Positions 14,831-57,903 of a DNA stretch of 64,000 bases are shown one piece after another; position 1 is the stretch's first letter, and each line of letters opens with the position of its first letter. The notes under the pieces were generated by a model that ran no database searches, was not told the DNA's origin, and saw nothing but the letters and a program-made list of their open reading frames with translations. Position numbers and translations under genes: made by a program. The DNA comes from an uncultured Acetatifactor sp. (GTDB lineage: Bacteria; Bacillota; Clostridia; Lachnospirales; Lachnospiraceae), in contig CANPXL010000012.1 of assembly GCA_947586055.1 (NCBI GenBank), positions 774 through 64,773 on the forward strand. Direction: 5' to 3'.

Positions 14831-15073
14831 TCAGTTCAGCCGGCAGTCGTATTCATCGAAAAATCATGCTTGCATGAATTTTTCGATGAATACGACTGCC
14901 GAGGGAGCGCCATTCCATGAGCAAAGGCAGGCGCGAAGCGCCGAATAGCGCGCCAGCGCGGCTTTGCGAATGGCGCGAGCTGAACTGATCCGTCCCATGG
15001 CAAAGGAAGGCGCGTAGCGCCGAATCGCGCGCCAGCGCGGCTTTGCGAATGGCGCGTGCTGAACTGGTCCGTT
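14831..15073. repeat. composite palindromic intergenic element (REP/BIME-like)
   Basis: 23-bp perfect inverted repeat 14841-14863/14879-14901; two tandem ~80-bp units (14915-14994, 14995-15073; 6 substitutions + 1 indel); TCAGTTCAGC (14831-14840) is inverted at 14979-14988. Confidence 0.85.
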
Positions 15074-41922: not shown

Positions 41923-42828
41923 TTATGCCAAAAGGTCAAAATACGTTTTCATGGGAATACTGCCGTTTTCTTTTGTGGTGGCGTTCGCCGCGGACATCGC
42001 GGCAGCCCTGGCCAGCGCCGTCTCGGGATCCTCCCTCTCCAGTTCGCTCATGCAGAGCGACGCCACCACCGTGTCGCCGCAGCCCACCGTGTTCACCGTC
42101 CGGACCGAATGCGCCGCATGAAAGTACGCCCGCTCTCCTTCCACCCAGACAAGCCCCTCTTTCCCAAGAGACACCACCACCCGGCCCACGCCCGCCGCAA
42201 GCAGCCGTCCGGCCTCTTTCACGATCTCATCCCGGCTCTCCAGACTCTTTCCCGCCAGATACTCCAGCTCCCGGCGGTTCGGCTTTACGATGTCAGGGCC
42301 CGCCGCGATCCCCTTTTTCAACGCTTCCCCGGACGCGTCCAGGATCACCCTGCAGCCCGCCAAATGACAGAGCTCCACCAGCTTTCCGTAGAAATCGTCG
42401 CAGACTCCCGCGGGAAGACTCCCGGACAGCACCGTCAGCTCGCACCGTTCCAGACACCCCGTAAACTGCCTCAGAAAGTTTCCCAGCTCCTTTTGGGTCA
42501 CCGCGGGCCCCGGCTCCAGAAGCTCCGTGACTCTGCCGTCTTCCTCCAGCACGTTGGTATTCGTTCTCGTCTCGCCCGCAATCTCCGTAAAATGGCACTC
42601 CACGCCCAGCTTTTCCAGCGTCTCTTCGATCAGCGTTCCCCCGGCGCCCCCCAGGAATCCCGCTGCCGCCACGGGAATATGAAACTGCCGCAGCACCCTG
42701 GTCACATTGACCGCCTTTCCTCCCGCCACGCTCTCCGCAGCGTCCATCCTGTTGACCTCTCCCGGCGCAAGCCGTTTCAGCCGGCATGTCCTGTCCACCG
42801 CCGGATTTAAACTCACCGTCAGAATCAT
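41923..42828 (-). CDS. 1-phosphofructokinase family hexose kinase (PfkB)
   Basis: LNPAVD, GGKAVNV, LSGSLP, KPNRREL, NTVGCGD. Confidence 0.92.
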   Translation of the reverse strand: MILTVSLNPAVDRTCRLKRLAPGEVNRMDAAESVAGGKAVNVTRVLRQFHIPVAAAGFLGGAGGTLIEETLEKLGVECHFTEIAGETRTNTNVLEEDGRVTELLEPGPAVTQKELGNFLRQFTGCLERCELTVLSGSLPAGVCDDFYGKLVELCHLAGCRVILDASGEALKKGIAAGPDIVKPNRRELEYLAGKSLESRDEIVKEAGRLLAAGVGRVVVSLGKEGLVWVEGERAYFHAAHSVRTVNTVGCGDTVVASLCMSELEREDPETALARAAAMSAANATTKENGSIPMKTYFDLLA

Positions 42829-42855
42829 CTTTCTCTCCTTTTCCGCGCCCGTTTC

Positions 42856-44622
42856 TCAGCAGTAATGCTGCATGATATACTGTACTTCCGTCTTTCCGCG
42901 GTAGGTATTCTTTCCCAGCTGATACGCCACCGAAACCGGGAAATGCGCCGTTCCCCGGTATAGAGCCTCCGCGCTGCCCGGCCCGAACTTTTCGTTCAGG
43001 AAGGTATCAAACGCATCGGGCTCTCCGAAAAAGACGAGCTGTCTTGACGCCCCGGCGGGCGTCCGAACCCGATATCTGGCCCACCTGCCCTTTTCCCCCA
43101 TCCGGTACCCGGCAAGAAAGATCAGATCCTTCTGGGCAAACAGCGGCTTGGGATTTCCCGTGCCGAAGGGCTCCAGCAGCTCCATTTCATCCGCGATGTC
43201 CTCCCCGGCGCAGTCCAGCGGCATGGGCACGTCGATATGCACCCTCGGCGCCAGATCTTCCTCCGTCAGCCCGCATCCGTCGTTCAGCGCCCTGCGCAGA
43301 GGCTCGATGTCTTCCTCCTGCATGGAGAGCCCCGCCGCCATGGCGTGTCCCCCGAATTTGGTAAAAAGATGCTTTACCTGTGTCATGGCCCGGTACATGT
43401 GATACCCCTCCACAGAGCGCCCGGAGCCCTTCACGCCTTCCTCGCCCCGGGTCAGGAGGAAGACGGGCCGGTAATAGCGTTCCCGGATCCTTCCGGCGAT
43501 AATGCCCGCCAGACTCTCATGCACCTGCGGCAGAAAGATCACCATGACCTTGTCACCGGCAATATCGTGTTCCGCGATATATTGTTCCGCCAGCTCCACT
43601 CCCTGCGCGGTCAGATTTTTCCTGCTGTCGTTCAGCTCCCTGAGCTCTTCCGCCGCGCTCATGGCTTCCGCCCGGGAGCCGCTCATAAGAAGCTCCAGCG
43701 CCCGCGCCGCCGTATCCAGCCGGCCGGTGGCGTTGAGGCACGGGCCGATCACAAACCCCAGATGATAGGCGCCAAGCCGGTCCGTCTTTAAGTCGTTTAC
43801 CGCCATCAGCGCCCTCAGACCCGGATTTTTTGTATCTTTCAGTCTCCGGATGCCTTCCTTTACAAGAATCCTGTTCTCATCCTTCAGCTCCATAACGTCG
43901 CAGACCGTGGAAAGCGCCACCAGCTCGAGGAACTCGTCCAGCGCCTGATCAAGCGCCTGGCTCCCGCTTTTCTCCGCCAGCGCCAGAATCAGCTTATAGG
44001 CCACCGTCGCGCCGCAGATCCCCGGGAAGGGATAGTCGCATTCCTCCCGCTTCGGATCGATGACGGCCAGCGCGGGGGGAAGGATTTCCCGGCGTTTTCC
44101 GTCCTCGTCCGTCTCAAAGGGCACCTCGTGATGATCCGTGACCACCACCCGGATTCCAAGCTCCCCCGCCAACGCAATCTGGGGCGCCGCCGCAATCCCG
44201 TTGTCACAGGTAACGATCATTCCCACCCCGTCGTCGGCCGCCTCCCGGATCAGGTGCTCGTTCAGTCCGTAGCCGTCGTGAATCCGGTGGGGAATGGCCG
44301 TATCCGCCGACGCTCCCAAAAGCCGGAATCCCCTTGTGAGAATATAGGAGGAACAGATCCCGTCCACGTCGTAATCCCCTATGATCCGGATCTTTTCCCC
44401 CTGCCGCAGCGCCTGAAGGATCTGGTCCACCGCCCGGTCCATATCCTTCAGAAGCCAGGGTGAATAACATTCCTTCAGCGTCCCGTGAAGGAACCGCTCC
44501 ACCTGCGCCTCTTCCGTCAGATCCCTGTTGCGCAGGATTCTGGCCAGCACGGGGCTGATGTGGAACTCTTTTGCCCATCTGTCAAAATCCGCCTTTTTTG
44601 CCGCTACAAACCACTTTTCCAT
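42856..44622 (-). CDS. recJ: single-stranded DNA exonuclease RecJ
   Basis: GDYDVDG, DGYGLN, VTDHHE (DHH), NATGRL, GSGRS, GGHAMAAG; start moved to ATG 44622. Confidence 0.96.
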   Translation of the reverse strand: MEKWFVAAKKADFDRWAKEFHISPVLARILRNRDLTEEAQVERFLHGTLKECYSPWLLKDMDRAVDQILQALRQGEKIRIIGDYDVDGICSSYILTRGFRLLGASADTAIPHRIHDGYGLNEHLIREAADDGVGMIVTCDNGIAAAPQIALAGELGIRVVVTDHHEVPFETDEDGKRREILPPALAVIDPKREECDYPFPGICGATVAYKLILALAEKSGSQALDQALDEFLELVALSTVCDVMELKDENRILVKEGIRRLKDTKNPGLRALMAVNDLKTDRLGAYHLGFVIGPCLNATGRLDTAARALELLMSGSRAEAMSAAEELRELNDSRKNLTAQGVELAEQYIAEHDIAGDKVMVIFLPQVHESLAGIIAGRIRERYYRPVFLLTRGEEGVKGSGRSVEGYHMYRAMTQVKHLFTKFGGHAMAAGLSMQEEDIEPLRRALNDGCGLTEEDLAPRVHIDVPMPLDCAGEDIADEMELLEPFGTGNPKPLFAQKDLIFLAGYRMGEKGRWARYRVRTPAGASRQLVFFGEPDAFDTFLNEKFGPGSAEALYRGTAHFPVSVAYQLGKNTYRGKTEVQYIMQHYC

Positions 44623-44726
44623 CCCGTTTTCCGTCCTGCTTTTCCCTGCCTGTTCCATGGCCGAGTATGATGAAAACAGAGCGTCCCGTGCGGGACGCTC
44701 TGTCCAAACGTTTCTCACCCTTCCGA

Positions 44727-46667
44727 TCAGGGCTGTAACTGCCCCGTGAAGCTGTACTGATAAACAATGGTATTCTGATAAGACCCGTTGCTCGTGCTCA
44801 CAGGATTGCCAAACACATCGTACTCATATACCGTCTGGGAGACCTGGTTGTCGTTCTCATCGTAGACCGTCTCCCGAATCTTGTTCCCCGCGTCGTCATA
44901 TTCGTACACGGTCCTTCCCGCGGATTCGGACCAGTAACCGTACTGTTCGACGCTGCGATAGCTGTACTCCGTCAGATTGCCGCCTGCGTCATACTGTCGG
45001 CTCCAATCCGTAGTGCTGTACGCATCCGTGTCGGATCCCTGAATCTCGTTCCCGGCGGCGTCATACCAGACCTCCGACGCAGCCTCCCACAGATCGGATA
45101 ACTGGTACCTGTTCATGATCCTGTGTGTCTTGTTTCCCGCATCGTCATATTCGTACTCATACACCTCCGAAGAGATGACGTCGTTCTCGTCCCGGCCGAA
45201 ACTATATTTTGCGATCAGATCTCCCCTGTCGTTATAAAAGGCGGTCCACCACTCGTAGATCTGCCAGGGGTCTCCGCTTTTGCTACTGGTTACATGCCCC
45301 TTATCGTCATAACTCATTTCCTGAAAATAGATAATCTGCCCCCGCTCGTCGTACTCTGTATATCTTATCATATTTCCGGCGGCGTCATACTGCATCGTCT
45401 CCTGCAGAGCGGCGCTTCCTGAGTCGTAGTAAGTCCGGGAAGCGGTCTTCCTGCCGGCGGCGTCGTACTCATTCTCCACCCTGGAGTATACTTCACCGTT
45501 GTCGTAATAGCTGATACACTGAACTTCGTTGCCGTTTCCGTCGTACTGGCTCTCTGTATACAGCTGTCCGTTCATATAGATGGACGCCGTGATCAGAACC
45601 GTATTGTCGATCAGATTGTTTAATATTTCTCCCAGCTTTGCCGAGCCGGTGGCGCTGATCCCCTGAGAAAGGATCTCCGCCGCCAAAACACAGTCGGAGG
45701 TCTCCAGCGCATGGGAAGCTTCCGCCAGGTACACTTCCTCCTTCTTTGCCGACAGCGTCCCGTCACCCGTTTCTTCCGTGCCTTCGTCCAGCGCGTTCAG
45801 GGCGCTTTCATAATCTCCGGCCGCCACAAAAGAATCCGCCTCCGCCGCATAAATCTCCACGTACTTCTGACCAAACCCGGAATCCCCGCACGCCTTCTCT
45901 CCCTTTATTGCCAGCTTCTTCGCCCTGGCAAAATCACCTGCCGCGATCTCGCTGTCGATTCCCGTCAGATACGCTTCCGTCAGTTTTTCCGTCAGCGCGC
46001 TCTTCGACGCATCGTCCTGATCCGTCTTTAATCCTTTCTGCAGCAGGTCGATGGCGTCCTGATATTTGCCGTCGCCGAGAAAGATTTCCGCCGAGCGGGT
46101 ATAGGCTTCCAGAAGACTGTCGTCATAGCTCAGCGCCGTCTCATACGCTTCCAGAGCATCTTCATACTCTCCCGCTTCGTAGTCCGCATTTGCCTGTTTC
46201 AGGTTTTTGCGGCTGTTATAAAAATCGCTGGTAAAGTACAGAGCGCCGCCCGTTCCCGCTCCCGCCAGAAGCACGATCAGGATGATGGCCGCGATCAGGC
46301 CGCCTTTTTTCTTTTTCTTCTTTTGGCCTTTCGGCTCTTTGGCGGCCGGCGCGGGCTTTGCGGGCTCAACGGGCTTTACAGGCTCCGCAGCCCCTGCGGG
46401 CTCAACGGCCTTTGCAGGTTCCGCTGCCTTTGCAGGCTCCGCGGCCTTTATAGGTTCCACGGCCTTTGCAGGCTCCGCGGGCTTTACAGGTTCCACAGCC
46501 TTTGCGGGCTCAACGGCCTTTGCAGCTTCCGCTGCCTTTGCAGGCTCAACGGGCTTTACAGTTTCCACGGGCTTTGCGGGTTCCGCTGGCTTTCTGACCG
46601 GCGCGCCGCAGTTTGTACAGAACGCCGCTTCTTCCTTCAGTTCCTTGCCGCACTTCGCACAGAACAT
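44727..46667 (-). CDS. zinc ribbon - Pro/Ala repeat - TM - TPR-like - YD-repeat membrane protein
   Basis: MFCAKCG...FCTNCG; hexapeptide repeats; KKKKKK + TM; helical repeats; about nine YDxxGN-type repeats. Confidence 0.8.
   Translation of the reverse strand: MFCAKCGKELKEEAAFCTNCGAPVRKPAEPAKPVETVKPVEPAKAAEAAKAVEPAKAVEPVKPAEPAKAVEPIKAAEPAKAAEPAKAVEPAGAAEPVKPVEPAKPAPAAKEPKGQKKKKKKGGLIAAIILIVLLAGAGTGGALYFTSDFYNSRKNLKQANADYEAGEYEDALEAYETALSYDDSLLEAYTRSAEIFLGDGKYQDAIDLLQKGLKTDQDDASKSALTEKLTEAYLTGIDSEIAAGDFARAKKLAIKGEKACGDSGFGQKYVEIYAAEADSFVAAGDYESALNALDEGTEETGDGTLSAKKEEVYLAEASHALETSDCVLAAEILSQGISATGSAKLGEILNNLIDNTVLITASIYMNGQLYTESQYDGNGNEVQCISYYDNGEVYSRVENEYDAAGRKTASRTYYDSGSAALQETMQYDAAGNMIRYTEYDERGQIIYFQEMSYDDKGHVTSSKSGDPWQIYEWWTAFYNDRGDLIAKYSFGRDENDVISSEVYEYEYDDAGNKTHRIMNRYQLSDLWEAASEVWYDAAGNEIQGSDTDAYSTTDWSRQYDAGGNLTEYSYRSVEQYGYWSESAGRTVYEYDDAGNKIRETVYDENDNQVSQTVYEYDVFGNPVSTSNGSYQNTIVYQYSFTGQLQP
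46338..46589 (-). repeat. ~14 degenerate 18-bp coding repeats (xxEPAK)
   Basis: PAEPAK PVETVK PVEPAK AAEAAK AVEPAK ... PAPAAK. Confidence 0.9.
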
Positions 46668-46700
46668 TTCCCTTTATCCTCCCTGTATCTTCCTGTTCCC

Positions 46701-47138
46701 TTATCCCAGCTTACAGCCGCAGGAAGTGCAGAACGCCGCTCCCTCGGCATAGACTGCGCCGCACTTGGGGCAGACATTCTGCGCCTTGTTGTCCTCGGCG
46801 AACAAAGGCTCCAGCTTCTCACCGCACTTGTTGCAGAACGCGCTGTCCAGCACAAGAATATTTCCGCACTTCTCGCATTTCCGGAGTCCCCTGATAGCCA
46901 GCTTGCGCTTTTCCTGATACTCCGTCTCCTTATCGACGGCCGCCACAGCGGTAACCATTTCCTCATAGGGCGTTCCCTTGACGCTCTCGGGCGTATTGGC
47001 CGCAAGAAAAGTCTGACCGATCTGCGTCACAAGCGCCGCCCGGTTCTGAGCCAGCTCCGCCAGCCTTCTGTCACACTCAACCTCCGCGGGATTCACATTG
47101 GAAACCGTCTGCTGATCCTTTTTCTCAAAAAATGCCAT
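46701..47138 (-). CDS. double zinc-ribbon protein
   Basis: CEKCG...FCNKCG and CPKCG...FCTSCG. Confidence 0.85.
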   Translation of the reverse strand: MAFFEKKDQQTVSNVNPAEVECDRRLAELAQNRAALVTQIGQTFLAANTPESVKGTPYEEMVTAVAAVDKETEYQEKRKLAIRGLRKCEKCGNILVLDSAFCNKCGEKLEPLFAEDNKAQNVCPKCGAVYAEGAAFCTSCGCKLG

Positions 47139-47167
47139 TTTTCTTTCCCTCTCTTTTCTTTTATTTT

Positions 47168-48292
47168 TTATTTATGTAAAGCATTTTTCCAACCTGACAC
47201 CAATACGCACAGCCCTGTGCCCACCAGGAGATAGGCGGCCATCAGATAAACATGATAGGTACTGTGCGTCGCCTTGAGATAGTAAAAAGGCGGAAGAAGA
47301 TACTGCAGCGGCCGAAAGCGGTCCACATTGATAAATACGGGACAGACCGCCGCCATTCCCATAAGAAGGATCGGGATGCAGCAGCCCAGACGCTCCGGCG
47401 TCCCGCAGAGCAGGCGGACCAGATTACAGAAGACCAGCACACAGCCCGTAAACAGCGCTGCATGGATCACTTCCCGATACCAGACCGTAAAGACCCCGGA
47501 CAGCCTGCAGGCGATCAGAAGCGCCGCCGCCGCGTCCGCCAGAACAACCCCGTGAAACCCGAAGGCCAGCCAGAGCCTGTGCTTTATAGGCATCCAGGAA
47601 AACGTTCCTCTCCGTTCATCCTGCATATAGTACAGGGAAGCGGCAAACCCGCACAGCACCAGCCAAAGGGCAAGGATCCCTCTCAGGGGAGCCAGAAGAT
47701 AACTGCTCTTCTCCGTGGCGCTTCCGTCAAAGTACACCACCTGAAACAGGGTGCCGTCCGCCTTCAGCCGCTCGTAGGCCTTCGACAGTTCCTCGTCCTC
47801 CGCCGCCAGCCCCAGATCGTCCCTGACATAATCCTCGTAAACGGCGTAGGAAAAGAACGGATACAGGGCGCTGGTCAGGATCTCTCTGGAAAAGGCGAGG
47901 GGGATGCTGTCCTCCCGCTCCACCACGGTCACAACAGGCCTCACCCGTTTCCGGGCCGCGCTCTCCCCCAGACGGAGGGCAAGGTTTTCCGGGAAAATCC
48001 ACGCCGCGTCAGCCTGAAAGCGTTCCACAAGGTCTCTCGCTTCCTCCGGCGTCTCGCAGATCACATATCGCAATACATTTCCGTCATCCAACAGCCCATC
48101 GACGATCTCTGCCGACAGTTCGTCAGACGGATCCGTCCGGCACAGCGCGATCGTCACGATCCCGCTTTCCTGCCGCGCCGCGAGCCGCATTCCCGCAACC
48201 AGCAGGGGGACGGCGCACAGGATCATAAGGAAACTCCCTTTTTTAAACAGACGCTTATTCAGAAGAAAAAACCATATCGCAATCCGGCGCAT
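47168..48292 (-). CDS. ABC-2 type transporter permease
   Basis: One N-terminal TM, extracytoplasmic loop, five C-terminal TMs, LLPPFY motif. Confidence 0.8.
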   Translation of the reverse strand: MRRIAIWFFLLNKRLFKKGSFLMILCAVPLLVAGMRLAARQESGIVTIALCRTDPSDELSAEIVDGLLDDGNVLRYVICETPEEARDLVERFQADAAWIFPENLALRLGESAARKRVRPVVTVVEREDSIPLAFSREILTSALYPFFSYAVYEDYVRDDLGLAAEDEELSKAYERLKADGTLFQVVYFDGSATEKSSYLLAPLRGILALWLVLCGFAASLYYMQDERRGTFSWMPIKHRLWLAFGFHGVVLADAAAALLIACRLSGVFTVWYREVIHAALFTGCVLVFCNLVRLLCGTPERLGCCIPILLMGMAAVCPVFINVDRFRPLQYLLPPFYYLKATHSTYHVYLMAAYLLVGTGLCVLVSGWKNALHK

Positions 48293-48298
48293 TTTCCG

Positions 48299-49540
48299 TT
48301 ATCCCCTCCGAATCCTGCAGTTTCTCACAAAAACCGAAATCCCGAAAAACACCGCCAGATAGCCAAACAGTCCCGCCGCCGCCCACAGAGAAGCCTCTTC
48401 CTGAAGCTGCGCCCCAGTGTATGCAAGCGCCCGTCCGGACGGAAGGGCCCCGCCGATCTTCCTCAAGACATCCGGAAACATACCGGAGGGATAAAAGCAG
48501 CCGGACAGATACGCCATGAAAATTCCGCATAAAAACTGCAGAAGAACGCTGCCGACAACGCCCGTTGTCAGCTCATACAGCAGAAACTGCATGGCGGCGA
48601 ATGACGCAGCCACGGGGATCATCTGAACATAGAAAGCAAAAAGCCCGGAGAACTCCCTTTCCGCCCCAACGGCGGAACTGACGGCGCCGCTGCCCAATAC
48701 CGCCCCAAGGATCAGAAAGACTCCCAGAAGGCAGCATAAATTGAGAAACAGATACGCCAGATACTCTCCCGCCACCTGCCGGAACGCTCCCACACCTTTC
48801 GACGCCATCAGACGCATCAAGCTGCCGTTCCTTCTCGCAAACAGCGGACAGCTGAAGATCCCCATAAGAAGCAGGAAAAAGATCAGCAGCCCGGAAAAGA
48901 GATGTTCCCCCGTGGAAAGTCCGGAGGACAGTCCCAGAGTCTCCAGATCGCAGATCTGCGTCCGGTTTAACACCATATCGATCAGCCGCAGGTTCAGATC
49001 GTCCGTAGCGCCCGCAACCTTATCCTTCATGCCGCGCTCCCGCAGAATATCCTGCATAGCGTATATAGCGTTCTGAGAATAGATAACCAGCGTGGACGCC
49101 ACCCCGGCAAGTTCCTCCACAAGGATTCCCGTTATTCCCTTCTGGCCTGTGGAGCCAACAAAGGTAATGGGCGCGTCGTTCGCCCCGCTGACAATGGCGT
49201 CTACAAGATCGTCCGGCACCACGGCGTACGCCGTGATATCACCCCTGATCAGCGCCCGTCTTGCCTCGGGCTCGGTCATAACCGGAAAGTCCAGTATAAA
49301 TCTGGAATCGTCCAACTGGGAAAGCGCGGAGATTCCAAAGCCAAGATAGGTATCCGTCGTATTTCCCACCAAAGCGATACGGTATCTGCGGCTGTCCTCC
49401 GCCCTTTCATCGCTGTTTAAGTACAGCGCCGCGAAAACGCCCACACAGCCGAACATGATCACCGTCACCGCGATCAGCGCGGGCAGAAGCTTCCGGGCGC
49501 GCCGAATCTGTACCGACAGGTACTTGCAAAATCCACTCAT
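48299..49540 (-). CDS. ABC-2 type transporter permease
   Basis: Same topology; GCFYPSGMFP...ALPSG. Confidence 0.8.
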   Translation of the reverse strand: MSGFCKYLSVQIRRARKLLPALIAVTVIMFGCVGVFAALYLNSDERAEDSRRYRIALVGNTTDTYLGFGISALSQLDDSRFILDFPVMTEPEARRALIRGDITAYAVVPDDLVDAIVSGANDAPITFVGSTGQKGITGILVEELAGVASTLVIYSQNAIYAMQDILRERGMKDKVAGATDDLNLRLIDMVLNRTQICDLETLGLSSGLSTGEHLFSGLLIFFLLLMGIFSCPLFARRNGSLMRLMASKGVGAFRQVAGEYLAYLFLNLCCLLGVFLILGAVLGSGAVSSAVGAEREFSGLFAFYVQMIPVAASFAAMQFLLYELTTGVVGSVLLQFLCGIFMAYLSGCFYPSGMFPDVLRKIGGALPSGRALAYTGAQLQEEASLWAAAGLFGYLAVFFGISVFVRNCRIRRG

Positions 49541-50208
49541 GATAGTATTCCCGCCAGCCGGTGAATGTCCCCGTCATACTCATAGGGAGTCAGGCTGCCG
49601 TCTCTGAGAATGTAGCATTGATCGCAGAGCGCAAGCTCCTGCATGTCGTGCGTTGCCAAAAGCAGGATGCCTCCCCCGTTTATATAAGTTTCAAAATATT
49701 GGTAAATCTTTTCCTTGCAGACAATGTCCAACGCCGCCGACGGCTCGTCAAGCAAAAGGATTCCGGGATTCGCGGCGACGGCGCAGCCGATGGACAGCCT
49801 TTTTTTCATTCCGCCCGACATCCTGTGTACCGGCACCTTCAGAAACCCACCGATCCCAAGGATCGCCAGCACCCCATGCTCCAGCTCCCGCTTCAGGGTC
49901 TTTCTGTCATACCACATACGCAGGTTATCCCATGCGTTCAGCTCTTCGATCAGAGGATTTTCCTGAGGGACATATCCCAGCACCGAATTGCGCAGCGCCG
50001 TATTTTTGAAAAGGTCCTCCCCGTCACAGAAAAAGCTGCCGCCATCCGCCTTCTGAACGCCCGCCAGCACGGAGAGCAGCGTGGATTTTCCACAGCCGTT
50101 CCCGCCGAGAATCCCCACGCAGCTGCCCTGTTTCGCCGTCAGAGACACATTTTTCAGGACTTTATTGCGCTGATACGCCTTTTGTATTCCTGACAGTTTA
50201 ATTTCCAT
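49537..50208 (-). CDS. ABC transporter ATP-binding protein
   Basis: GGNGCGKST, MSGGMKKR, LLLDEPS, ATH. Confidence 0.93.
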   Translation of the reverse strand: MEIKLSGIQKAYQRNKVLKNVSLTAKQGSCVGILGGNGCGKSTLLSVLAGVQKADGGSFFCDGEDLFKNTALRNSVLGYVPQENPLIEELNAWDNLRMWYDRKTLKRELEHGVLAILGIGGFLKVPVHRMSGGMKKRLSIGCAVAANPGILLLDEPSAALDIVCKEKIYQYFETYINGGGILLLATHDMQELALCDQCYILRDGSLTPYEYDGDIHRLAGILS

Positions 50209-50304
50209 AAAAGCCGTTCTCTCCCACCGTCTCCTGCCGCTTCCGATATCATCCCCGCCGCAGGGGTCGTTCTGATCCGCCCTCCCTGAAAAGAACCGTC
50301 CTAT

Positions 50305-52317
50305 TTAATAATAATAGTCGTCGTCATAATAATCATCGTAATAATAATCATCGTAATAATCGTAGCCGCCCAGTTCATCCTCCAGATCGTACAGCAGGCC
50401 GCTCAGTTCATCCCAGTCTCCGTCCGCAAGGGCGTCACAGACATCCTCGATGGGATCCAGCAGATAGTCCGGCAGATCCGTCTTCTCCAGATGGGAATAA
50501 AACTTCTTCCAGTCGATGGTCTCCACCCAGTCCTCAAGATCCCGCTCATCCTCCGCAAAGATCACGTTTTTCTCCTTCGGGATCTTCACGGACGACGCCT
50601 TCTTTTGTTCCTCGGAAACCGTAACGGATACCATGTCCTCTCCGTCGTAGGTCACGCCGCAGGTAACTTCCGCGGAATTCGGAGAAGATTGTTTTCCGGT
50701 CACGACGATCTGGATATCCTCCAGAATGGATGCCAAGAGGGGGCCTCCGCCTACGGGCACTCGGCCTCCGGACACTCCGGCCAGCAGTTCAGCGCCGTCC
50801 GGCGCCAGGCCGATGGTAATCCCGCCGTCAAACATGCCCTGTTTCAACGCCTTCATATCCAGCTTTTCGGTGGTAATCTTCAGCATGTCACCGCCGTCGC
50901 CGTTCTCTTCGTAGCTTAAGACAAATTCGCCGCTGTACTTATCTCCCGATTTCTTTCCGCTTCCAAGGAAAGAGACATCCATTTCATCCCCGTATTCTTC
51001 CACGTGCATGGAGATCTCGCTTCCGAATTTTCCGCCGTTCTCCGCCGTCAGTATCGCAAAGGACGCGGCAATGTCGTCTTCCTCGCTGTTTATCTCCAGC
51101 AGTCTTCCGATCACGTCACCGGCGCCGTCCACATAAAGCGTGAGCAATATGGTTCCCTCGTCCTCGTCGTAATCGCCGAAATCTCCCAGGTTGTCGCTGA
51201 GATATTCCACTTCCCGAAGGAACTCGTCGTACGCCTCGTCCCCGTCTCCGCCAAACGCATCCACGGTCTCAACGATGATGTCCTCCAGATCGGCATCGTC
51301 CCGGGCTTCCTCCAGAACCGCCTGCAGCATATCTCCGATCAGCTGCGGCGTCACTTCGATCTCCAGCGCGGTACATTTCTGGGAAACGCCTTCCACCTTC
51401 AGAGTTGCGGACCTTTTGTCGGCGTCATCGACGCAGGAGGATAGAATCTTTACATAATTTTCCACCAGCTTTTCGATCTTACCCTGACTGGGCAGCGCCT
51501 CTATGGTCTTTGTATACTGATCCCTGAAATCCTCCCAGTAATCCAGCGCCTCGTCAACGGGAATGTCCATATCTTCCAGATCCACGCCCAGGTATGTATC
51601 CGACAGTTCGGGAATCTGAAGATAGGCGGCGCCATCTTCCAGATCCAGCGCCCCCGCAAGCGTGAGCAGACTCTTCTGATTCAGTCCCCCGGACAGGTTC
51701 AGGGCGAACTGGTTTCCGTTTATGGTAATACTGCAGTCCGCGAAAACGCTCTCCAGCCAGGACAGATCCTCGCCCAGCGCGTTCTCCGCCAGTTCAAAGA
51801 TCTCGTCGAATCCATCGCCGAACGCCAGCGTCACGGAAGCGTTGGACGTACATTCAAACAGATCCGCGCTGTCCAGCACAAGAGACTGATACAGGCTTCC
51901 CGCTGATCCGGCCAGTTCTTTCGCATTTTCCTTTTCCACATACTGATAATATTTTTCGGGAGAAGAAACCGTCTTATGGAAGAAATTGGATATCTTTGCC
52001 GGCAGTTTCAGCGCAAAGGCTCCCCCGACCAGCACAACCGCCGCGGCGGCCACCGAACCGATCGTCACAAACAGCTTTTTGTGGCTCTTCGGCGCTTTCT
52101 TCTCTTTTTGATCCTGCTGCGCAGGCTGCGTCTGCGGCAACGGCTGGTTAATCGGCGGCACCGGCTGCGCCGACTGTATCGGCTGCGTCGGCTGTTGGGC
52201 CGGCTGTATCGACTGCGCCCCCCCGTCCGAAACGGCCCTGCCTTTTACCGGCGTACCGCAGTTCGGACAGAACAGCTCGCCGTCCTGCAGCTTTGTTCCA
52301 CACTTTTCACAAAACAT
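50305..52317 (-). CDS. zinc ribbon - Gln/Pro linker - TM - large acidic domain protein
   Basis: MFCEKCG...FCPNCG; QPAQ repeats; one TM; Asp/Tyr low-complexity C-terminus; start moved to ATG 52317. Confidence 0.8.
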   Translation of the reverse strand: MFCEKCGTKLQDGELFCPNCGTPVKGRAVSDGGAQSIQPAQQPTQPIQSAQPVPPINQPLPQTQPAQQDQKEKKAPKSHKKLFVTIGSVAAAAVVLVGGAFALKLPAKISNFFHKTVSSPEKYYQYVEKENAKELAGSAGSLYQSLVLDSADLFECTSNASVTLAFGDGFDEIFELAENALGEDLSWLESVFADCSITINGNQFALNLSGGLNQKSLLTLAGALDLEDGAAYLQIPELSDTYLGVDLEDMDIPVDEALDYWEDFRDQYTKTIEALPSQGKIEKLVENYVKILSSCVDDADKRSATLKVEGVSQKCTALEIEVTPQLIGDMLQAVLEEARDDADLEDIIVETVDAFGGDGDEAYDEFLREVEYLSDNLGDFGDYDEDEGTILLTLYVDGAGDVIGRLLEINSEEDDIAASFAILTAENGGKFGSEISMHVEEYGDEMDVSFLGSGKKSGDKYSGEFVLSYEENGDGGDMLKITTEKLDMKALKQGMFDGGITIGLAPDGAELLAGVSGGRVPVGGGPLLASILEDIQIVVTGKQSSPNSAEVTCGVTYDGEDMVSVTVSEEQKKASSVKIPKEKNVIFAEDERDLEDWVETIDWKKFYSHLEKTDLPDYLLDPIEDVCDALADGDWDELSGLLYDLEDELGGYDYYDDYYYDDYYDDDYYY

Positions 52318-52482
52318 ACGAATCCTCCTCAAATATTCCGCAGGATCTCCCTCAATCTCCGCCCTGCATTTTGTTTCAAAACTCTTTCAACATTATACCG
52401 ATGTTTTCCTCTTTTTGTCAAGCCGTGTCCGAAAGGAACTGCCATCGCTGTAAAAGGAAGAAAAAGAACGCGGAAAAATGTC

Positions 52483-52544
52483 GGGGCCTGTCCAAAAAAC
52501 AAGCCGCATGGCAGCGGCCAAAGCCCTGCCTGCGACTTGTTTTT
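52483..52544. repeat. imperfect inverted repeat, possible IS-end remnant
   Basis: AAAAACAAG.CGCA.GGCAG ... CTGCC.TGCG.CTTGTTTTT (52495-52544) next to GGGGCCTGTCCAAAAAA. Confidence 0.4.
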
Positions 52545-52623
52545 GGTGTTGATTTCTTATTTTACGGCCAAAGACTCCCGGGCGAATGTTGAAACCCGCA
52601 AAGCCAGGGACATCCCCAGACTG

Positions 52624-53241
52624 TTACTCAACCAGCATATCCCATGAGTGGTATACGCCGTAGCGGCCGTTGACCTTGATGACAAGCCAACTCTCCACTA
52701 CCAGATCCCTGTCATACTCAAACTGCGTCGTGACGAGATAACCCTTAGAAACCTTCAGATCTCTGAGATCCCTGCTTTCAATGCCTCCCTTCCCCAGCAA
52801 GAACGATTCCGCCGCATCCTCCAGAAGCTTGTTAACATCCTTTCCGCTGATCTTCGTAACGTCGAGCACCTTATAGTGCTCCACATCCTCAAAATTATCA
52901 TATTCATCAATGTTGTCGTAACTTTCCTCAGCCCAGTCTTCTACCTCCCCCTCAAGATCCTTGGGGTAGAACTTTTTCCATTTTACATCGCCAGCATCCT
53001 TTTCTCCCGACATAAAGACCTGAACGTAAGTCTTTACCGCCTTCTTTGCCTTTCCCTCTGCGACGCCTCTTGCGATGGCGGGAATCAGGATCACAAGGAT
53101 CACAACCGCCACAACGGCGATGATGGCGATCATCTTGGAATCCAGTTTCAGCCCCTTCTTCTGGCCGTCCTGAGACGGAGTCCCCTGAGGCTGCGGTGCC
53201 GCTCCGCTGGTGGGAGCATAATTATTCGTGTTGATATCCAT
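52624..53241 (-). CDS. single-TM hypothetical protein
   Basis: GGAGGAG RBS before ATG 53241; Pro/Gln linker, polybasic stretch, TM, acidic domain; visibly AT-richer than the flanks. Confidence 0.75.
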   Translation of the reverse strand: MDINTNNYAPTSGAAPQPQGTPSQDGQKKGLKLDSKMIAIIAVVAVVILVILIPAIARGVAEGKAKKAVKTYVQVFMSGEKDAGDVKWKKFYPKDLEGEVEDWAEESYDNIDEYDNFEDVEHYKVLDVTKISGKDVNKLLEDAAESFLLGKGGIESRDLRDLKVSKGYLVTTQFEYDRDLVVESWLVIKVNGRYGVYHSWDMLVE

Positions 53242-53362
53242 TTCTTCTCCTCCACTTTCTGTTGACGGTTGCCACAAGGAACCGCCCTTTGCACAACTTA
53301 TGCTTATGTTAGCACAGGCATGACGAAAAAGCAAGAAAAAAATCTTTTTTCGGGTTCTCATG

Positions 53363-53395
53363 GCAACAGTTCAGCCGCGCCATTCGCAAAGCCGC
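53363..53395. repeat. partial copy of the CAGTTCAGC repeat family
   Basis: 53367-53395 is the reverse complement of 14958-14987 with one indel; lies 3 nt beyond the secDF stop. Confidence 0.85.
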
Positions 53396-53398
53396 TTC

Positions 53399-55639
53399 TT
53401 ACCGCTCCTGTTTCGGGCGGAATTTCCTGCGGAGCAGATACCATATACTCCCCGCCAGACAGACGGAGGAATAGGTGCCGCAGACAATGCCTACCATCAG
53501 CGGCAGCGCAAAGTCCTTGATGCTGGTCACGCCGAGAACATAAAGCACGGCGACCATGATAAACGTGGTCAGGGAAGTAAAAATGCTTCTGGACATGGTC
53601 TGGGTGACGCTTCGGTTTACGGTCTCCTGCAGATCCTCCCTGCCGCCCTTTGCCGCCATATTCTCCCGGATGCGGTCGAAAATCACGATGGTGGCGTTGA
53701 TGGAATAACCAACAATGGTCAGCATGCACGCCACAAAGGTATTGCTCACAGATACCCTTGCCGCCGCGTAGAACGCCAGCACAACGAGCACATCGTGAAT
53801 CAGCGCAATGATGCTGCTGACGCCGAAGCGGAGGTCCTTAAAGCGGATCCTGATGTAGATCAGCATGCAGACGATGGCCACCGCCACCGCGATAATGGTG
53901 TCGGATTTCATCTCGTCGCTGATCGTGGAGCTGATCGTCTCGGACGTGATCATCTTTTCCTCGATCCCAAAAGTATCGGTCAGCATCTTCGTCAGCGCTT
54001 CGTTCCGGTCGATGTCAAGCGTATCCATCTTAAAGATGACCTCGTTGGTCTCCTGGACGGTCTGTACCTGCACGGCGCTGCCCGTGATGTCCTCAATGAG
54101 AGGGACTACCTGCTCGTTCGCTTCCTCCAGCGTCATGGCATGGTCAAAGGTGACCGTCACCGCCGTGCCGCCCTTAAAGTCCAGACTGTAATTCAGCGCG
54201 TCGCCGGTCTTCGCGCCGTAAACGCCCATTACGATAAACCCGGCCGCGATCACGGCCAGAGAAATTCCCATAAAGATTCCCTTTTTCTGCAGAATGGCAA
54301 GAGGCCTGCGCTCTTTCGACACGCCGTAAAGCTTCGGATTCTTTGCACCCAGCTCATAAAAGGCGAGCAGCACATACCGGGTCACCACAAGGGAAGTAAA
54401 CATGGACAGCACGATGCCCAGCGCGAGGGTCTGGGCGAAGCCCTTCACGGAGCCGGGGCCCAGAAACAGCAGCACGCAGGCCGCGATCAGGGTTGTGATA
54501 TTGCCGTCCAGAATCGCGGAGAAAGCTTTGCTGAATCCGGCCTGGATGGCGCTCCGCACCGTCTTTGCCGCGGCGAGTTCCTCCCGGATGCGGGCAAATA
54601 TAATCACGTTCGCGTCCACCGCCATGCCCACGGAAAGGATAATGCCCGCGATACCGGACAGCGTCAGCGTCATGGCAAAACCGTTCAAAAGCAGGATCAC
54701 AAGGGCCACATAGGACAGCAGTCCGATCACGGAAGCAACCCCCGGTATCCGGTAGACAACGATCATAAACAACGCCACAAGCGCCAGGCCGATAGTGCCC
54801 GCGATCAGGCTGGTCCGGATGGCGTCCACGCCCAGCTGGGCGCCCACCACCTTGGAATGGAGCTGCTCCAGCTCCAGCTTCAGGCCACCGATGCGGATGG
54901 TGGAAGCGAGCTGTTCCGCCTCTTCATAAGTGCTCTGGCCGTTGATGACCGCGTTCCCGTCCGTGATCGCCGCCGAGACTCTCGGCACGCTGACCAGCTC
55001 GCCGTCGTAATAGATCGCAATGGACTCTCCGGCGGCAAGGGCTTTCGTCGTGGCGTCCGCAAAGGCTTTCGTTCCTCCCTCCGTCAGTGTCAGGCTGACG
55101 ACGTACTCCGAGTTGCCCGTGACGGAATCCCGCTGGGTTCCGGCTTTGGCGTCCGCCACATCCGTTCCCGTTATGACGACGGAGCCGTCCTCCAGCAGTT
55201 CGTCAATGGTCTTTGTCAGCGTATATGTCCCATCCATCCCATAGCTGTAGTTGCTGTTGCCGTCCGCGTCCGTCTGCGCGATGAAATACAGCGCTCCGGG
55301 CCGTCCCAGCTCCTTCAGGATCTCGTTGGCGTTGGAAACCCCGGGGATCTCGATATTGATCCTGTCGCTTCCCTCCTGATAGACGATGGCTTCCGTACTG
55401 TAGCCCTCCACCCTCTGCTGCAGCTTATAGATGGTGTCGCTCATGTCCGTGCTGTCGGGTTCCTCTTCTCCCACCACCTGATAGGTAATGCTGACGCCGC
55501 CCGCCAGATCCAGCCCCAGCTTGATGTCGGAAGCGCTTCCGTCTCCCATGGCGTTTACGCCGAAGATGTCTACATAAGCGACTCCGGCAAGCAGCACCAG
55601 AATACAAAGCAAAATTATGACCGCCCTGTTCTTTTTCAT
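53399..55639 (-). CDS. secDF: fused protein translocase subunit SecDF
   Basis: KLGLDLAGG, GMAVDANVII, ILDGNITT, SLDFKGGT, GYSINATIVIFDRIRE, GTYSS. Confidence 0.96.
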   Translation of the reverse strand: MKKNRAVIILLCILVLLAGVAYVDIFGVNAMGDGSASDIKLGLDLAGGVSITYQVVGEEEPDSTDMSDTIYKLQQRVEGYSTEAIVYQEGSDRINIEIPGVSNANEILKELGRPGALYFIAQTDADGNSNYSYGMDGTYTLTKTIDELLEDGSVVITGTDVADAKAGTQRDSVTGNSEYVVSLTLTEGGTKAFADATTKALAAGESIAIYYDGELVSVPRVSAAITDGNAVINGQSTYEEAEQLASTIRIGGLKLELEQLHSKVVGAQLGVDAIRTSLIAGTIGLALVALFMIVVYRIPGVASVIGLLSYVALVILLLNGFAMTLTLSGIAGIILSVGMAVDANVIIFARIREELAAAKTVRSAIQAGFSKAFSAILDGNITTLIAACVLLFLGPGSVKGFAQTLALGIVLSMFTSLVVTRYVLLAFYELGAKNPKLYGVSKERRPLAILQKKGIFMGISLAVIAAGFIVMGVYGAKTGDALNYSLDFKGGTAVTVTFDHAMTLEEANEQVVPLIEDITGSAVQVQTVQETNEVIFKMDTLDIDRNEALTKMLTDTFGIEEKMITSETISSTISDEMKSDTIIAVAVAIVCMLIYIRIRFKDLRFGVSSIIALIHDVLVVLAFYAAARVSVSNTFVACMLTIVGYSINATIVIFDRIRENMAAKGGREDLQETVNRSVTQTMSRSIFTSLTTFIMVAVLYVLGVTSIKDFALPLMVGIVCGTYSSVCLAGSIWYLLRRKFRPKQER

Positions 55640-55667
55640 CTCTTTTTATCCTTTCTGCTGTGTTTTT

Positions 55668-57053
55668 TTATATATCCTGCTCGGCCGCCTTCAGCATGAC
55701 GGCGCATTCCACACGTTTTCTTTCCAGTTCGCAGCCCACGTCGTAAGCGTCGTTGATACTGCCGTTGAAGTTGTACGCGTTCGCCGCGCAGCCGCCGCTG
55801 CAGTAAAATCTGGCGAAACACTTCCTGCATTTTTCCTTTGTGTAGACGTTGCAGCTGCGGAAGCGGTCCCTGATGTCCTCACGCAGGATCCCTTCCTCCA
55901 CATTTCCCATGAGGAACGCCTCGTTTCCCACAAACTGGTGGCAGGGGTACAGGTCGCCCCACGGCGTCACGGCCAGATATTCCGTGCCGGAGCCGCAGCC
56001 CGCGAGCCGCTTTGCCACACAGGGCCCGCCGCTTAAGTCTATCATAAAATGAAAGAAGTGAAAACCCCTTCCCTCTCTCTTCCTCTTTAAAATCTCTTCC
56101 GCCAGCCGGTCATATTCCGCCTTCAGCGCCGGAAGATCGGCTTCCGTGATGGCGTAGTCGTCGTCGGGTCCGGCCACCACCGGCTCCACGGAGATCTGCC
56201 GAAAGCCCAGATCCGCCAGATGGAGCACATCCCGGGAAAAATCCAGATTGTTGTGGGTAAAGGTGCCGCGCACATAATACCGCTCCTGCCCCCTGCTCTC
56301 CGCCACCTTCTGAAACTTCGGAACGATCAGATCATAGCTGCCCTGGCCGCCCCGGAAAGGACGCATCTTATCGTGGATCTCCCTGCGCCCGTCGATGCTG
56401 AGCACGACGTTTGCCATCTCCCTGTTTACAAACGCAAGGATCTCGTCGTTTAAGAGAACGCCGTTCGTGGTCAGCGTAAACCGGAACCTCTTGTTATGTG
56501 CCTTCTCCAGACTTCTGCCGTAGCGCACCAGCTCTTTCACCGTCTCCCAGTTCATCAGGGGCTCGCCGCCGAAAAAGTCCACCTCCAGATTCACCCGGTT
56601 TCCGGAGTTTGCCACGAGAAAGTCCAGAGCCTTTTTCCCGACTTCCACGCTCATCAGGGCCCGCCGTCCATGATATTCGCCTTCCCCCGCGAAACAGTAC
56701 CGGCAGGCGAGATTACAGTCGTGCGCGATATGCAGGCAGAGGGCCTTTACCACCGTCTGTCTGTCTTTGAAATCAGAGACGACCGATTCATAGAGATCCG
56801 GGGCAAACAGCTGTCCCGCCTTCTCCAGCTCCAGCACCTCGTCCACCGCCTCGCAGATTTCCTCCCGGCTGCAGGACAGAGACGCGCGCTGACAAACCGC
56901 CTCCTTCACCTTCCCGGGATCCCTGACCCCCTCGTTGATCAGGGACTCCGTCAGGGGAATGATGTCGTAGACAACGTCGTCCACCACATGTATGGACCCG
57001 CTGTTTATATCCATAACGATATTGTAACCGCCGCTTTTATATTGGTGTATCAA
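55668..57053 (-). CDS. scfB: SCIFF radical-SAM/SPASM thioether maturase
   Basis: MIHQYK (TTG start), CNLACRYC, FFGGEP, SPASM CGSG...YPCHQF...CRKC...CSGGC. Confidence 0.94.
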   Translation of the reverse strand: MIHQYKSGGYNIVMDINSGSIHVVDDVVYDIIPLTESLINEGVRDPGKVKEAVCQRASLSCSREEICEAVDEVLELEKAGQLFAPDLYESVVSDFKDRQTVVKALCLHIAHDCNLACRYCFAGEGEYHGRRALMSVEVGKKALDFLVANSGNRVNLEVDFFGGEPLMNWETVKELVRYGRSLEKAHNKRFRFTLTTNGVLLNDEILAFVNREMANVVLSIDGRREIHDKMRPFRGGQGSYDLIVPKFQKVAESRGQERYYVRGTFTHNNLDFSRDVLHLADLGFRQISVEPVVAGPDDDYAITEADLPALKAEYDRLAEEILKRKREGRGFHFFHFMIDLSGGPCVAKRLAGCGSGTEYLAVTPWGDLYPCHQFVGNEAFLMGNVEEGILREDIRDRFRSCNVYTKEKCRKCFARFYCSGGCAANAYNFNGSINDAYDVGCELERKRVECAVMLKAAEQDI

Positions 57054-57077
57054 CTCAGAATTTCCTCTCACACAAAA

Positions 57078-57106
57078 AGTAGCAGCGACCGGAATCGCTG
57101 CTTACT
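57078..57106 (-). terminator. hairpin between scfA and scfB
   Basis: AGCAGCGA / TCGCTGCT stem with extension and T5 tract on the minus strand. Confidence 0.6.
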
Positions 57107-57126
57107 CTAGTCTTTCGATAGTCAGA

Positions 57127-57270
57127 TTATTTCATCTTCTCACAGCTCTGATTTCCTACGGTGCAGGAAGTCTTGCACGCCGACTGGCAGGAGGTCTGAC
57201 ATTCGCCGCAACCGCCCTTCTTCATGGATTCCTTGAGATTCCTCGTGGTCAAAGTCTTGATGTGCTTCAT
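57127..57270 (-). CDS. scfA: SCIFF (six-cysteine) ranthipeptide precursor, 47 aa
   Basis: MKHIKTLTTRNLKESMKKGGCGECQTSCQSACKTSCTVGNQSCEKMK; AAGGAGG RBS; below the ORF-track cutoff. Confidence 0.97.
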   Translation of the reverse strand: MKHIKTLTTRNLKESMKKGGCGECQTSCQSACKTSCTVGNQSCEKMK

Positions 57271-57408
57271 TTTCACAGCCTCCTTACTCGCTTGTTTCAT
57301 GTCGAAAATCTCCCGACTTCACCAAGTATACCATAAAATAACCGTTTGTAAAAGGTTTTTTTCAAAAACAGTGCCGAAACCGTGCTTTTTCTTCATTTTC
57401 CCGTGTTT

Positions 57409-57801
57409 TTAACTGAGCATGCCCCCCAGCATTCCGCCCCCCGCGCAAAGCACCAGCGTTGTAAAGAAGGAATTCCCGAACGTAAGCCCGCCCTCTCCCA
57501 TGGCAAGGGAGGCGGCGGCCAGCACGACGAAATAGGCGATTCCCATCACAAGCCCCCAGAAGAACTTTCTGGTCTTTTGTTTTTTCCCCGCCATAAATCC
57601 GCCAAAGAAGGCGGCCGCCACATAAATGACGATAATGGCGGCGGCGACCGCCTTTTCCCCCAGCCCCAGCCTGTAGAGAAGGAAGGCCAGCAGCGCCAGC
57701 AGCGCGCCCGTAACTATGTAAGAAAACAGAAGGGTCTTGAGCAGAAAGAAAACGGGAAATTCTCCCTGGTTCGTTTTTTTCTCCATCGCGTTTCTCTCCA
57801 A
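57409..57801 (-). CDS. TIGR04086 family membrane protein
   Basis: Four TMs, GGMLGGMLS terminus, typical position upstream of scfA; alternative start ATG 57786. Confidence 0.85.
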   Translation of the reverse strand: MERNAMEKKTNQGEFPVFFLLKTLLFSYIVTGALLALLAFLLYRLGLGEKAVAAAIIVIYVAAAFFGGFMAGKKQKTRKFFWGLVMGIAYFVVLAAASLAMGEGGLTFGNSFFTTLVLCAGGGMLGGMLS

Positions 57802-57844
57802 CCATTAACTTTTTATAAAATTATATGCACAAGCCCCCGAAAAC

Positions 57845-57874
57845 TTGACAATTCCCTTTCGGCTATAGTATATT
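57845..57874 (+). promoter_or_regulatory. sigma-A promoter of hlyC/corC gene
   Basis: TTGACA-18 bp-TATATT; AGGAGTG RBS at 57891. Confidence 0.6.
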
Positions 57875-57903
57875 TACTTATCATACCAAAAGGAGTGAAC
57901 TGT

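Follow-up and report, generated by a model that had tools for sequence, protein, structure and literature searches.

A gene block between secDF and recJ of Acetatifactor, read as a putative ABC exporter unit and a cassette of zinc-ribbon surface proteins

Overview of the gene block

The window analysed here is a 64,000-nt stretch of DNA from an uncultured Acetatifactor species (Lachnospiraceae; assembly GCA_947586055.1, contig CANPXL010000012.1, positions 774 to 64,773). It contains a block of seven genes, g1 to g7, located between secDF and recJ. On balance, the block is read as two stacked units to which an orphan gene, g1, is added. Unit A (g2-g5) is most likely an exporter of the ATP-binding cassette (ABC) superfamily, specifically a type V exporter resembling ABCA and DrrABC, with g2 as its dedicated ectodomain partner. 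Unit B (g6 and g7) is a predicted, nearly genus-restricted cassette that combines the small soluble protein g6 with swappable, ribbon-anchored surface proteins. In the following, G000 denotes the genome of the window and other G-numbers denote other genomes, L-numbers are loci and C-numbers are contigs of G000; positions without a contig or locus refer to the window.

The listing of open reading frames (ORFs) confirms seven co-oriented genes on the minus strand, as do their flanks secDF (upstream; 53399-55639, from the ORF listing and genus comparison) and recJ (downstream; 42856-44622), which are encoded on the same strand. The architectures that an earlier interpretation of the DNA (the sequence-only reading) had described for the seven genes were borne out by ORFs, Pfam matches and transmembrane (TM) topology. 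The first gene, g1 (52624-53241), encodes a 205-aa protein that TM prediction identifies as single-pass. It is followed by g2 (50305-52317), which according to ORF, Pfam and AlphaFold2 (AF2) data consists of a zinc ribbon, a linker, a TM segment and an acidic, beta-rich ectodomain. The start of g2 is an ATG (MFCEKCG), and its ORF stays open up to a TTG at 52332. The 223-aa ABC ATPase g3 (49537-50208, PF00005) has a stop that overlaps the start of g4 by 4 nt. g4, or P1 (48299-49540), is an ABC-2 permease (PF12698, ABC2_membrane_3), and g5, or P2 (47168-48292), is a second, divergent ABC-2 permease according to its topology and the annotation of its homologues. g6 (46701-47138) is soluble, has 145 aa and comprises a helical hairpin and two C4 ribbons (Pfam DZR, AF2), and g7 (44727-46667) combines a zinc ribbon, a linker, a TM segment, TPRs and YD repeats (Pfam). 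The start of recJ (MEKWFVAAKK) was taken from relatives; its ORF is open for 32 further codons upstream, to 44718. With recJ starting as in relatives, the true gap between g7 and recJ is about 104 nt rather than 8 nt. The GC content of the block is just slightly below that of its flanks.

Linkage and distribution of the g2-ATPase-P1-P2 genes

The genes for ATPase, P1 and P2 are contiguous in all 25 Lachnospiraceae loci inspected. A g2-family gene coding for a single-pass protein of about 510-800 aa adjoins them in 21 of these loci and is located upstream, divergently, or between ATPase and P1. An hhalign comparison (99.5%, E 1.7e-22) shows that the forms placed between ATPase and P1 share homology with the g2 ectodomain. 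When 399 Clostridia genomes were searched with a profile, full-length g2 relatives were recovered in several other Clostridia families, and the order g2-ATPase-P1-P2 is found in all ten loci from these families for which enough contig is available. The same linkage is seen in the metagenome loci L059, L063, L064 and L072. Altogether, the g2 family adjoins ABC genes in about 85% of the loci seen. No conserved binding-protein gene was found near ATPase-P1-P2.

The distribution of unit A is wide and patchy. A single g5 homologue per genome is present in 45 of 300 Lachnospiraceae genera; within the genus, 9 of 40 genomes have one. Judged by this gene order, unit A is a predicted four-gene operon that is widespread in Clostridia and apparently forms a conserved functional unit. 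The module is thus common in gut Clostridia, being present in these 45 genera and in several other families, and its substrate, if defined, would account for a recurrent accessory trait of these bacteria.

g6 and its ribbon-anchored neighbours

The g6 protein matches the double zinc ribbon model PF12773 (40.7 bits) as well as PF13240 (41.9 bits) and has no TM segment. Like the ribbons of g2 and g7, it exceeds the gathering score for ribbons of the form CxxC-x(10-12)-CxxC. Its AF2 model (predicted local distance difference test score, pLDDT, 80.6) consists of a helical hairpin (aa 17-47 and 59-82) and the two ribbons. The g6 alignment has a mean column identity of 64% and contains the nearly invariant stretch EKRKLAxQGLRKCEKCGNILVLDSAFCNKCGEKLEPLF. 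In contrast to unit A, g6 is narrowly distributed and was found in 1 of 300 other genera and in 6 of 40 genus genomes.

The genomic context of g6 was compared for homologues of at least 44% identity, to which a more distant g6-like gene in G024 was added. In all 11 other contexts, as in the window, g6 lies in a co-oriented cluster with one to five single-pass proteins that carry an N-terminal ribbon of the same type. The neighbour is g7 in G015, a ribbon protein with a Lectin_C domain in L059 and one with TPR and DUF4352 in L063. There are two such proteins in L065 and in G350, two located upstream of g6 in G168, three in L064 and in L061, four in L066 and five in a row in G348; in G024, the neighbour is g2 itself. 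A comparative link between the ribbon proteins, as assumed in the sequence-only reading, therefore holds for g6 and the anchored proteins in every clear context. A simple motif census gives about nine N-terminal-ribbon single-pass proteins per genome.

The anchored partner in the window, g7, starts with a zinc ribbon (PF13240, 33.7 bits), which is followed by a (PAKAVE)n linker, the basic stretch KKKKKK, one TM segment, TPRs and about 280 aa of RHS/YD repeats (PF05593, E 8.9e-11; TIGR01643). Its slot is variable: it is occupied by the TPR-DUF4352 protein in L063 and by the Lectin_C protein in L059. The RHS/YD repeats are shared with Rhs/YD-repeat toxins. However, g7 has only the repeats of about 280 aa, tethered by an N-terminal ribbon and a TM segment, and its relatives exchange the YD part for DUF4352 or a C-type lectin domain. 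Neither an Rhs core nor a C-terminal toxin family was matched in Pfam or NCBIfam. A paralog of g7 (zinc ribbon, TM, TPR, YD; 678 aa) stands alone at G000 C25:31780-33816. Two more adjacent zinc-ribbon membrane proteins are encoded about 5 kb from this paralog (C25:38456-40073).

Upstream of the g6 homologues on two unrelated metagenome contigs, a serine recombinase of about 200 aa (PF00239) is immediately adjacent (L065:6188-6820 and L066:6183-6788). Phase-variable expression of ribbon-protein operons may be associated with this enzyme.

Two units or a single seven-gene system

The sequence-only reading had proposed one co-inherited module of seven genes, in which three ribbon proteins assemble in the cytoplasm around the ABC transporter to form a single envelope system. 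Such a system would explain why g2-ABC-P1-P2, g6 and a ribbon-anchored protein recur together at other sites and in other orders. The complete seven-gene order is also present in G015 and L063. Related arrangements are Zn345-g2-ABC-P1-P2-g6-Zn/Lectin_C in L059/L060, Zn1041-g6-463-Zn/TPR-g2-ABC-P1 in L064, and g6-like-g2-ABC-P1-P2-Zn353-Zn619 in G024. Nevertheless, the genes were found to occur independently of each other. In most Lachnospiraceae and in the ten loci of other Clostridia families, the four-gene core stands alone, and g6 was found in just 1 of 300 other genera. Clusters of g6 and ribbon proteins are present without any ABC gene in L061, L065, L066, G350 and G168, and in G348 units A and B are located on different contigs. 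The lone g7 paralog and the restriction of g1 to only 23 homologues point in the same direction. The ribbon itself is optional in g2, as 8 of 31 g2-type partners lack it. A single seven-gene system is therefore considered unlikely; independent occurrence of the genes is also what the sequence-only reading itself had named as speaking against its proposal.

Transcription signals also separate g1 from the remaining genes. A terminator-like hairpin with flanking A/T tracts was found by sequence search 3' of g1 (52495-52544, minus strand). It is followed by a sigma-70-type promoter upstream of g2 (TTGACA-18-TATAAT, 52392-52421, minus strand) that matches the consensus at 12 of 12 positions. The layout is the same in G015, with an equivalent hairpin after g1 and then TTGACA and TATAAT elements upstream of g2. 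Given the hairpin and T-tract after g1 and the promoter before g2, the seven genes do not form one uninterrupted operon. The gaps from g2 to g7 (96, -4, 6, 29 and 33 nt) are short and thus compatible with a single transcript for g2-g7.

Type of the ABC transporter

With 104.5 bits for PF00005 (cut-off 25), g3 is clearly an ABC ATPase, and its motifs are all intact (Walker A GGNGCGKST, Q-loop VPQEN, signature LSGGMKKR, Walker B ILLLDEP and H-loop ATHD). g4 is identified as an ABC-2 permease by PF12698 (64.2 bits, cut-off 31.6) and is composed of TM1, an external loop of about 170 aa and five further TM segments. The topology of g5 is similar (TM1, a loop of about 165 aa, five TM segments). g5 itself has no Pfam match; it gives a weak cross-match to the P1 profile, and its homologues carry PF12698 in precomputed annotation. 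The nearest solved sequences to g3 are the nucleotide-binding domains of ABCA3/7/1/4. Among NCBIfam models, drrA (TIGR01188) gave the best match of g3 with 131.8 bits, which is far below its cut-off of 312.45 and does not support membership; nor is membership supported for CcmA (TIGR01189; 110.4 bits, cut-off 131.6). All NCBIfam ATPase matches of g3 stay far below the cut-offs, generic ABC families score equally, and no curated family was matched by g4 or g5 in the NCBIfam permease search. The expectation that the transporter would not map to a known curated system was thus confirmed.

Three known systems are comparable in layout. DrrABC of Streptomyces and Mycobacterium has, like unit A, one ATPase gene and two different ABC-2 permease genes, and the arrangement of TM1, external domain and five TM segments in each unit A permease is that of the halves of eukaryotic ABCA proteins. 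The mycobacterial DrrABC has LppX, an extracytoplasmic lipid-binding protein, as its partner. In unit A, by contrast, the partner is a bitopic, operon-encoded protein of about 600 aa from a family absent from Pfam. The second system is CcmABCDE (system I cytochrome c maturation), in which an ABC ATPase is likewise combined with two dissimilar membrane subunits of the ABC-2 type, and CcmA is among the top matches of g3. CcmABCDE acts on CcmE, a bitopic, N-terminally anchored protein with a beta-rich ectodomain, and is a precedent for an ABC machine that works on a tethered partner instead of pumping a free solute. However, unit A has no CcmB, CcmC or CcmE homologues or haem-handling motifs, and its host is an anaerobic Firmicute. 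The third group, Gram-positive ABC-2 exporters of the LnrLMN (YfiLMN) and SagGHI type, comprises one ATPase and two ABC-2 permeases of about 375-415 aa with external loops. These systems export or resist amphiphilic natural products. They lack a fourth subunit comparable to g2, and their genes are linked to those of a two-component system or to a biosynthetic cluster; conserved neighbours of this sort are absent around unit A.

More specifically, unit A might serve as a pump that confers resistance or immunity to cationic antimicrobial peptides or bacteriocins, similar to LanFEG, CprABC or BcrAB, with the acidic g2 as a peptide decoy or sensor. The layout of one ATPase and two permeases, the patchy distribution across the genus and the 300 genera, and the acidity of the ectodomain in every member are in line with this view. 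The same is true of the similarity of g3 to the protection-ABC models TIGR03608 (118.7 bits) and TIGR03740 (105.7 bits), but these scores are far under the cut-offs of 254.85 and 309.75, so that membership is not supported. In about 45 neighbourhoods, neither a two-component system nor a gene for a bacteriocin or for immunity is conserved. Furthermore, the housekeeping character of the consensus promoter speaks against induced resistance, and the permeases, with about 375-415 aa and loop domains, differ from LanE/G with about 250 aa. A peptide pump is accordingly judged quite improbable.

The g2 family

g2 starts with a PF13240 zinc ribbon (aa 7-29, 34.7 bits), which is followed by a disordered Pro/Gln-rich linker, the basic patch KEKKAPKSHKK, one TM segment and an ectodomain of 563 aa with a net charge of -92. 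The ectodomain is acidic in 60 of 60 members checked, with a median net charge of -0.094 per residue. The AF2 model (pLDDT 80.5 overall and >90 across the ectodomain) consists of a long stalk helix, a meander of about 20 long beta-strands accompanied by packed helices, and a C-terminal helical bundle. Porin matches in the structure search were rejected as a fold assignment, as they reflect a generic long antiparallel sheet. The family shares a conserved juxtamembrane motif, SSPEKYYQxVE, and its most conserved residues, E126, Y128 and V132, are invariant. They lie just outside the membrane, which makes them the expected site of contact with the permeases.

At E<=1e-30, the family comprises 1,993 clusters at 50% identity. 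Pfam has no model for the ectodomain in 42 of 42 members, in which the ribbon alone is detected, NCBIfam gave only sub-threshold noise, and a full-text literature search returned nothing on the unit A module. g2 thus represents a new family that is undescribed in Pfam, NCBIfam, the PDB and the literature searched. With about 2,000 divergent clusters, it constitutes a sizeable annotation blind spot in human and animal gut commensals.

Long g2 homologues carry fusions to SBP_bac_3, DUF4854 or TPM domains. These fusions confirm the extracellular location of the ectodomain and do not give a clear substrate clue. One homologue with a C-terminal SBP_bac_3 domain (L072:1157-4060) is still encoded directly before ATPase-P1-P2. 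The C-terminus of g2 (50305-50370) is a Tyr/Asp-rich tail, YDYYDDYYYDDYYDDDYYY. Such tails end many members of the family; the version in G348 has about 70 aa (L040:935-2983), and distant members end in YYYY or YYRYY. Cation binding, wall contact and Tyr modification are possibilities for the role of the tail.

Proposed mechanism

In the proposed mechanism, unit A would be transcribed from its own strong sigma-A-type promoter. The ABC-2 permeases g4 and g5, each contributing an external loop domain, would form a heterodimer driven by two copies of g3. g2 would act as a dedicated fourth subunit, its juxtamembrane motif and the curved beta-sheet of its acidic ectodomain being placed on the outer face of the transporter, where it would accept, hold or be remodelled around the extruded material. 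An amphiphilic envelope molecule or a membrane-active molecule would be the most likely substrate. g6, in turn, would bind the cytoplasmic ribbons of g7, of similar surface proteins and of g2. The analysis itself establishes the gene architectures, the patterns of linkage and conservation, the insertion, the motifs of promoter and terminator and the predicted folds. From gene contexts and protein architecture we infer the complex formation, the direction of transport, the substrate class and the binding of ribbons by g6.

Several points weigh against this picture. Six g2-family genes have no neighbouring ABC genes (L015, L016, L018, L058, L073 and L074), and three ABC loci have no g2-like neighbour (L024, L033 and L036). 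Foldseek searches against the PDB returned no meaningful relative of g2, with TM-scores below 0.3 (0.1-0.3) to a porin-like sheet only and no LolA/LppX-like match, and Foldseek gave no meaningful structural relative for g6 either. The role of g2 as an acceptor and that of g6 as a ribbon binder therefore derive solely from architecture and gene linkage, and the substrate class of unit A is a guess. In addition, at least six independent-looking arrangements, differing in order and location, place units A and B side by side. A functional tie between the units is for this reason plausible in this clade, and treating them as fully separate may understate it.

Function of the N-terminal ribbons

About 80,000 clusters at 50% identity match the ribbon-linker-TM part of the g2 profile; N-terminal zinc ribbons are thus widespread on Gram-positive membrane proteins. 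Tentatively, g6 may stand for a new class of small cytoplasmic partners that bind the N-terminal PF13240 ribbons of bitopic Gram-positive surface proteins including g2, and that would cluster, target or regulate them. If true, this would be the first function for these very common, unexplained membrane-protein ribbons, and g6 would connect an ABC machine with an exchangeable repertoire of surface-binding proteins.

The sole functional idea found for N-terminal ribbons is that of tethered transcription factors. It originates from Gram-positive proteins with an N-terminal PF12773, PF13240 or PF13248 ribbon, a TM segment and an extracellular YARHG domain, for which binding of nucleic acid by the ribbon was hypothesised (Coggill & Bateman 2012, PMC3355149). 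The anchoring plan of the YARHG proteins is that of unit B and g2, while the ectodomains differ. The YARHG paper describes neither a gene for a soluble double-ribbon partner nor a link to an ABC transporter (PMC3355149), and the association of soluble-ribbon and anchored-ribbon genes is undescribed.

Applied to the present genes, the ribbon-anchored proteins would be membrane-tethered transcription factors or signal transducers and g6 a soluble regulator of the same kind. Apart from the shared architecture, a small helix-turn-helix (HTH) gene that sometimes adjoins g6 clusters would suit this idea. However, the anchored proteins have no DNA-binding domain beyond the 23-residue ribbon and no linked site-1 or site-2 protease, and g2 homologues can do without the ribbon. 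Arrays of as many as five consecutive ribbon proteins, whose ectodomains resemble adhesins (lectin, YD, Ig-like), have the look of surface display rather than of signalling. g6 had been considered a DksA/TraR-type regulator on account of its architecture; this was rejected, as neither PF01258 nor a DksA/TraR structure in Foldseek nor any other regulator was matched. A regulatory role of this kind is very improbable.

The secDF-recJ junction as an insertion site

The junction was compared among 24 genus genomes with secDF and recJ on the same contig. In 15 of them, including the genome of locus L046, the two genes are directly adjacent, at a distance of 0-82 bp. The other nine carry differing cargo. 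The present block is found in G000 and G015, and g1-g2-g3-g4-g5 only in G348. The remaining six junctions, which lie within loci L039-L045, contain a maltodextrin operon and an Rpn-like gene (G022), AsnB, an HTH gene and a kinase (G350), a BlaR1-like protein (G349), a chemoreceptor (methyl-accepting chemotaxis protein; G355), an HD-GYP protein (G016) and a prepilin-peptidase-like ORF (G018). The block is therefore inserted, as the sequence-only reading had supposed, into an ancestrally tight junction that is a hot spot of gene insertion within the genus. The junction is a clear case of a chromosomal hot spot that gathers unrelated cargo inside one genus. The same Rpn-like fragment occurs in the G022 and G018 junctions.

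That the block is an anti-phage defence system, as had also been suggested, is highly improbable: its accessory and patchy occurrence at a variable junction and generic matches of g3 to PADLOC ATPases (mad3, AriA) would be in line with defence, but these matches are ordinary ABC/AAA similarity, the other six proteins have no match in PADLOC-DB 2.0, no nuclease, protease, NTPase sensor or other effector is encoded, the neighbours are housekeeping genes and the design of the proteins points to the cell surface.

Repeats and RNA elements

At the upstream edge of the block, the sequence-only reading had noted a repeat-family copy as a mark of insertion. The copy exists: blastn places a partial copy of a dispersed repeat resembling repetitive extragenic palindromes (REP-like), with the consensus GCGCGTCAGCGCGGCTTTGCGAATGGCGCGGGCTGAACTGTTAC, at 53363-53395 (minus strand), beginning 3 nt past the secDF stop. 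Its interpretation as a mobile-element scar was rejected. The repeat has about 68 genomic copies (blastn), many of them in tandem arrays with periods of 68-165 bp, and no copy was found at the secDF-recJ junction of G015, G348 and L063. Given these dispersed copies and the absence at the junction in relatives, the edge repeat is no marker of insertion. Further copies are located at 14959 and 15038 in the window, besides the one at 53377, and at G000 C17:15390-15675, C37:18218-18591 and C3:56155-56482. The repeat is possibly REP/BIME-like (BIME, bacterial interspersed mosaic element) or a small mobile element.

The promoter and the terminator between g1 and g2 are bracketed by a 10-bp inverted repeat without mismatches (52385-52394 and 52585-52594). 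An invertible promoter was rejected for now, as G015 does not share the repeat and no recombinase adjoins it. An Rfam scan of positions 42000-58000 detected neither a riboswitch nor a leader.

The orphan gene g1 and genes upstream of secDF

The ATG start of g1 is preceded by GGAGG, and the protein has a short cytoplasmic N-terminus, one TM segment and an acidic ectodomain of about 140 aa. No Pfam or NCBIfam match was obtained. Its 23 homologues are all at least 48% identical, belong to the same small clade and share contigs with the block, and g1 precedes g2 in G015, G348 and L063. By its sequence relatives, g1 is a clade-specific orphan membrane protein.

Directly upstream of secDF, a Cys-rich peptide of 57 aa (57127-57300, minus strand, ...GGCGECQTSCQSACKTSCTVGNQSC...) is followed by a radical-SAM enzyme of 467 aa (55668-57071). 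The pair is presumably a SCIFF peptide with its maturase.

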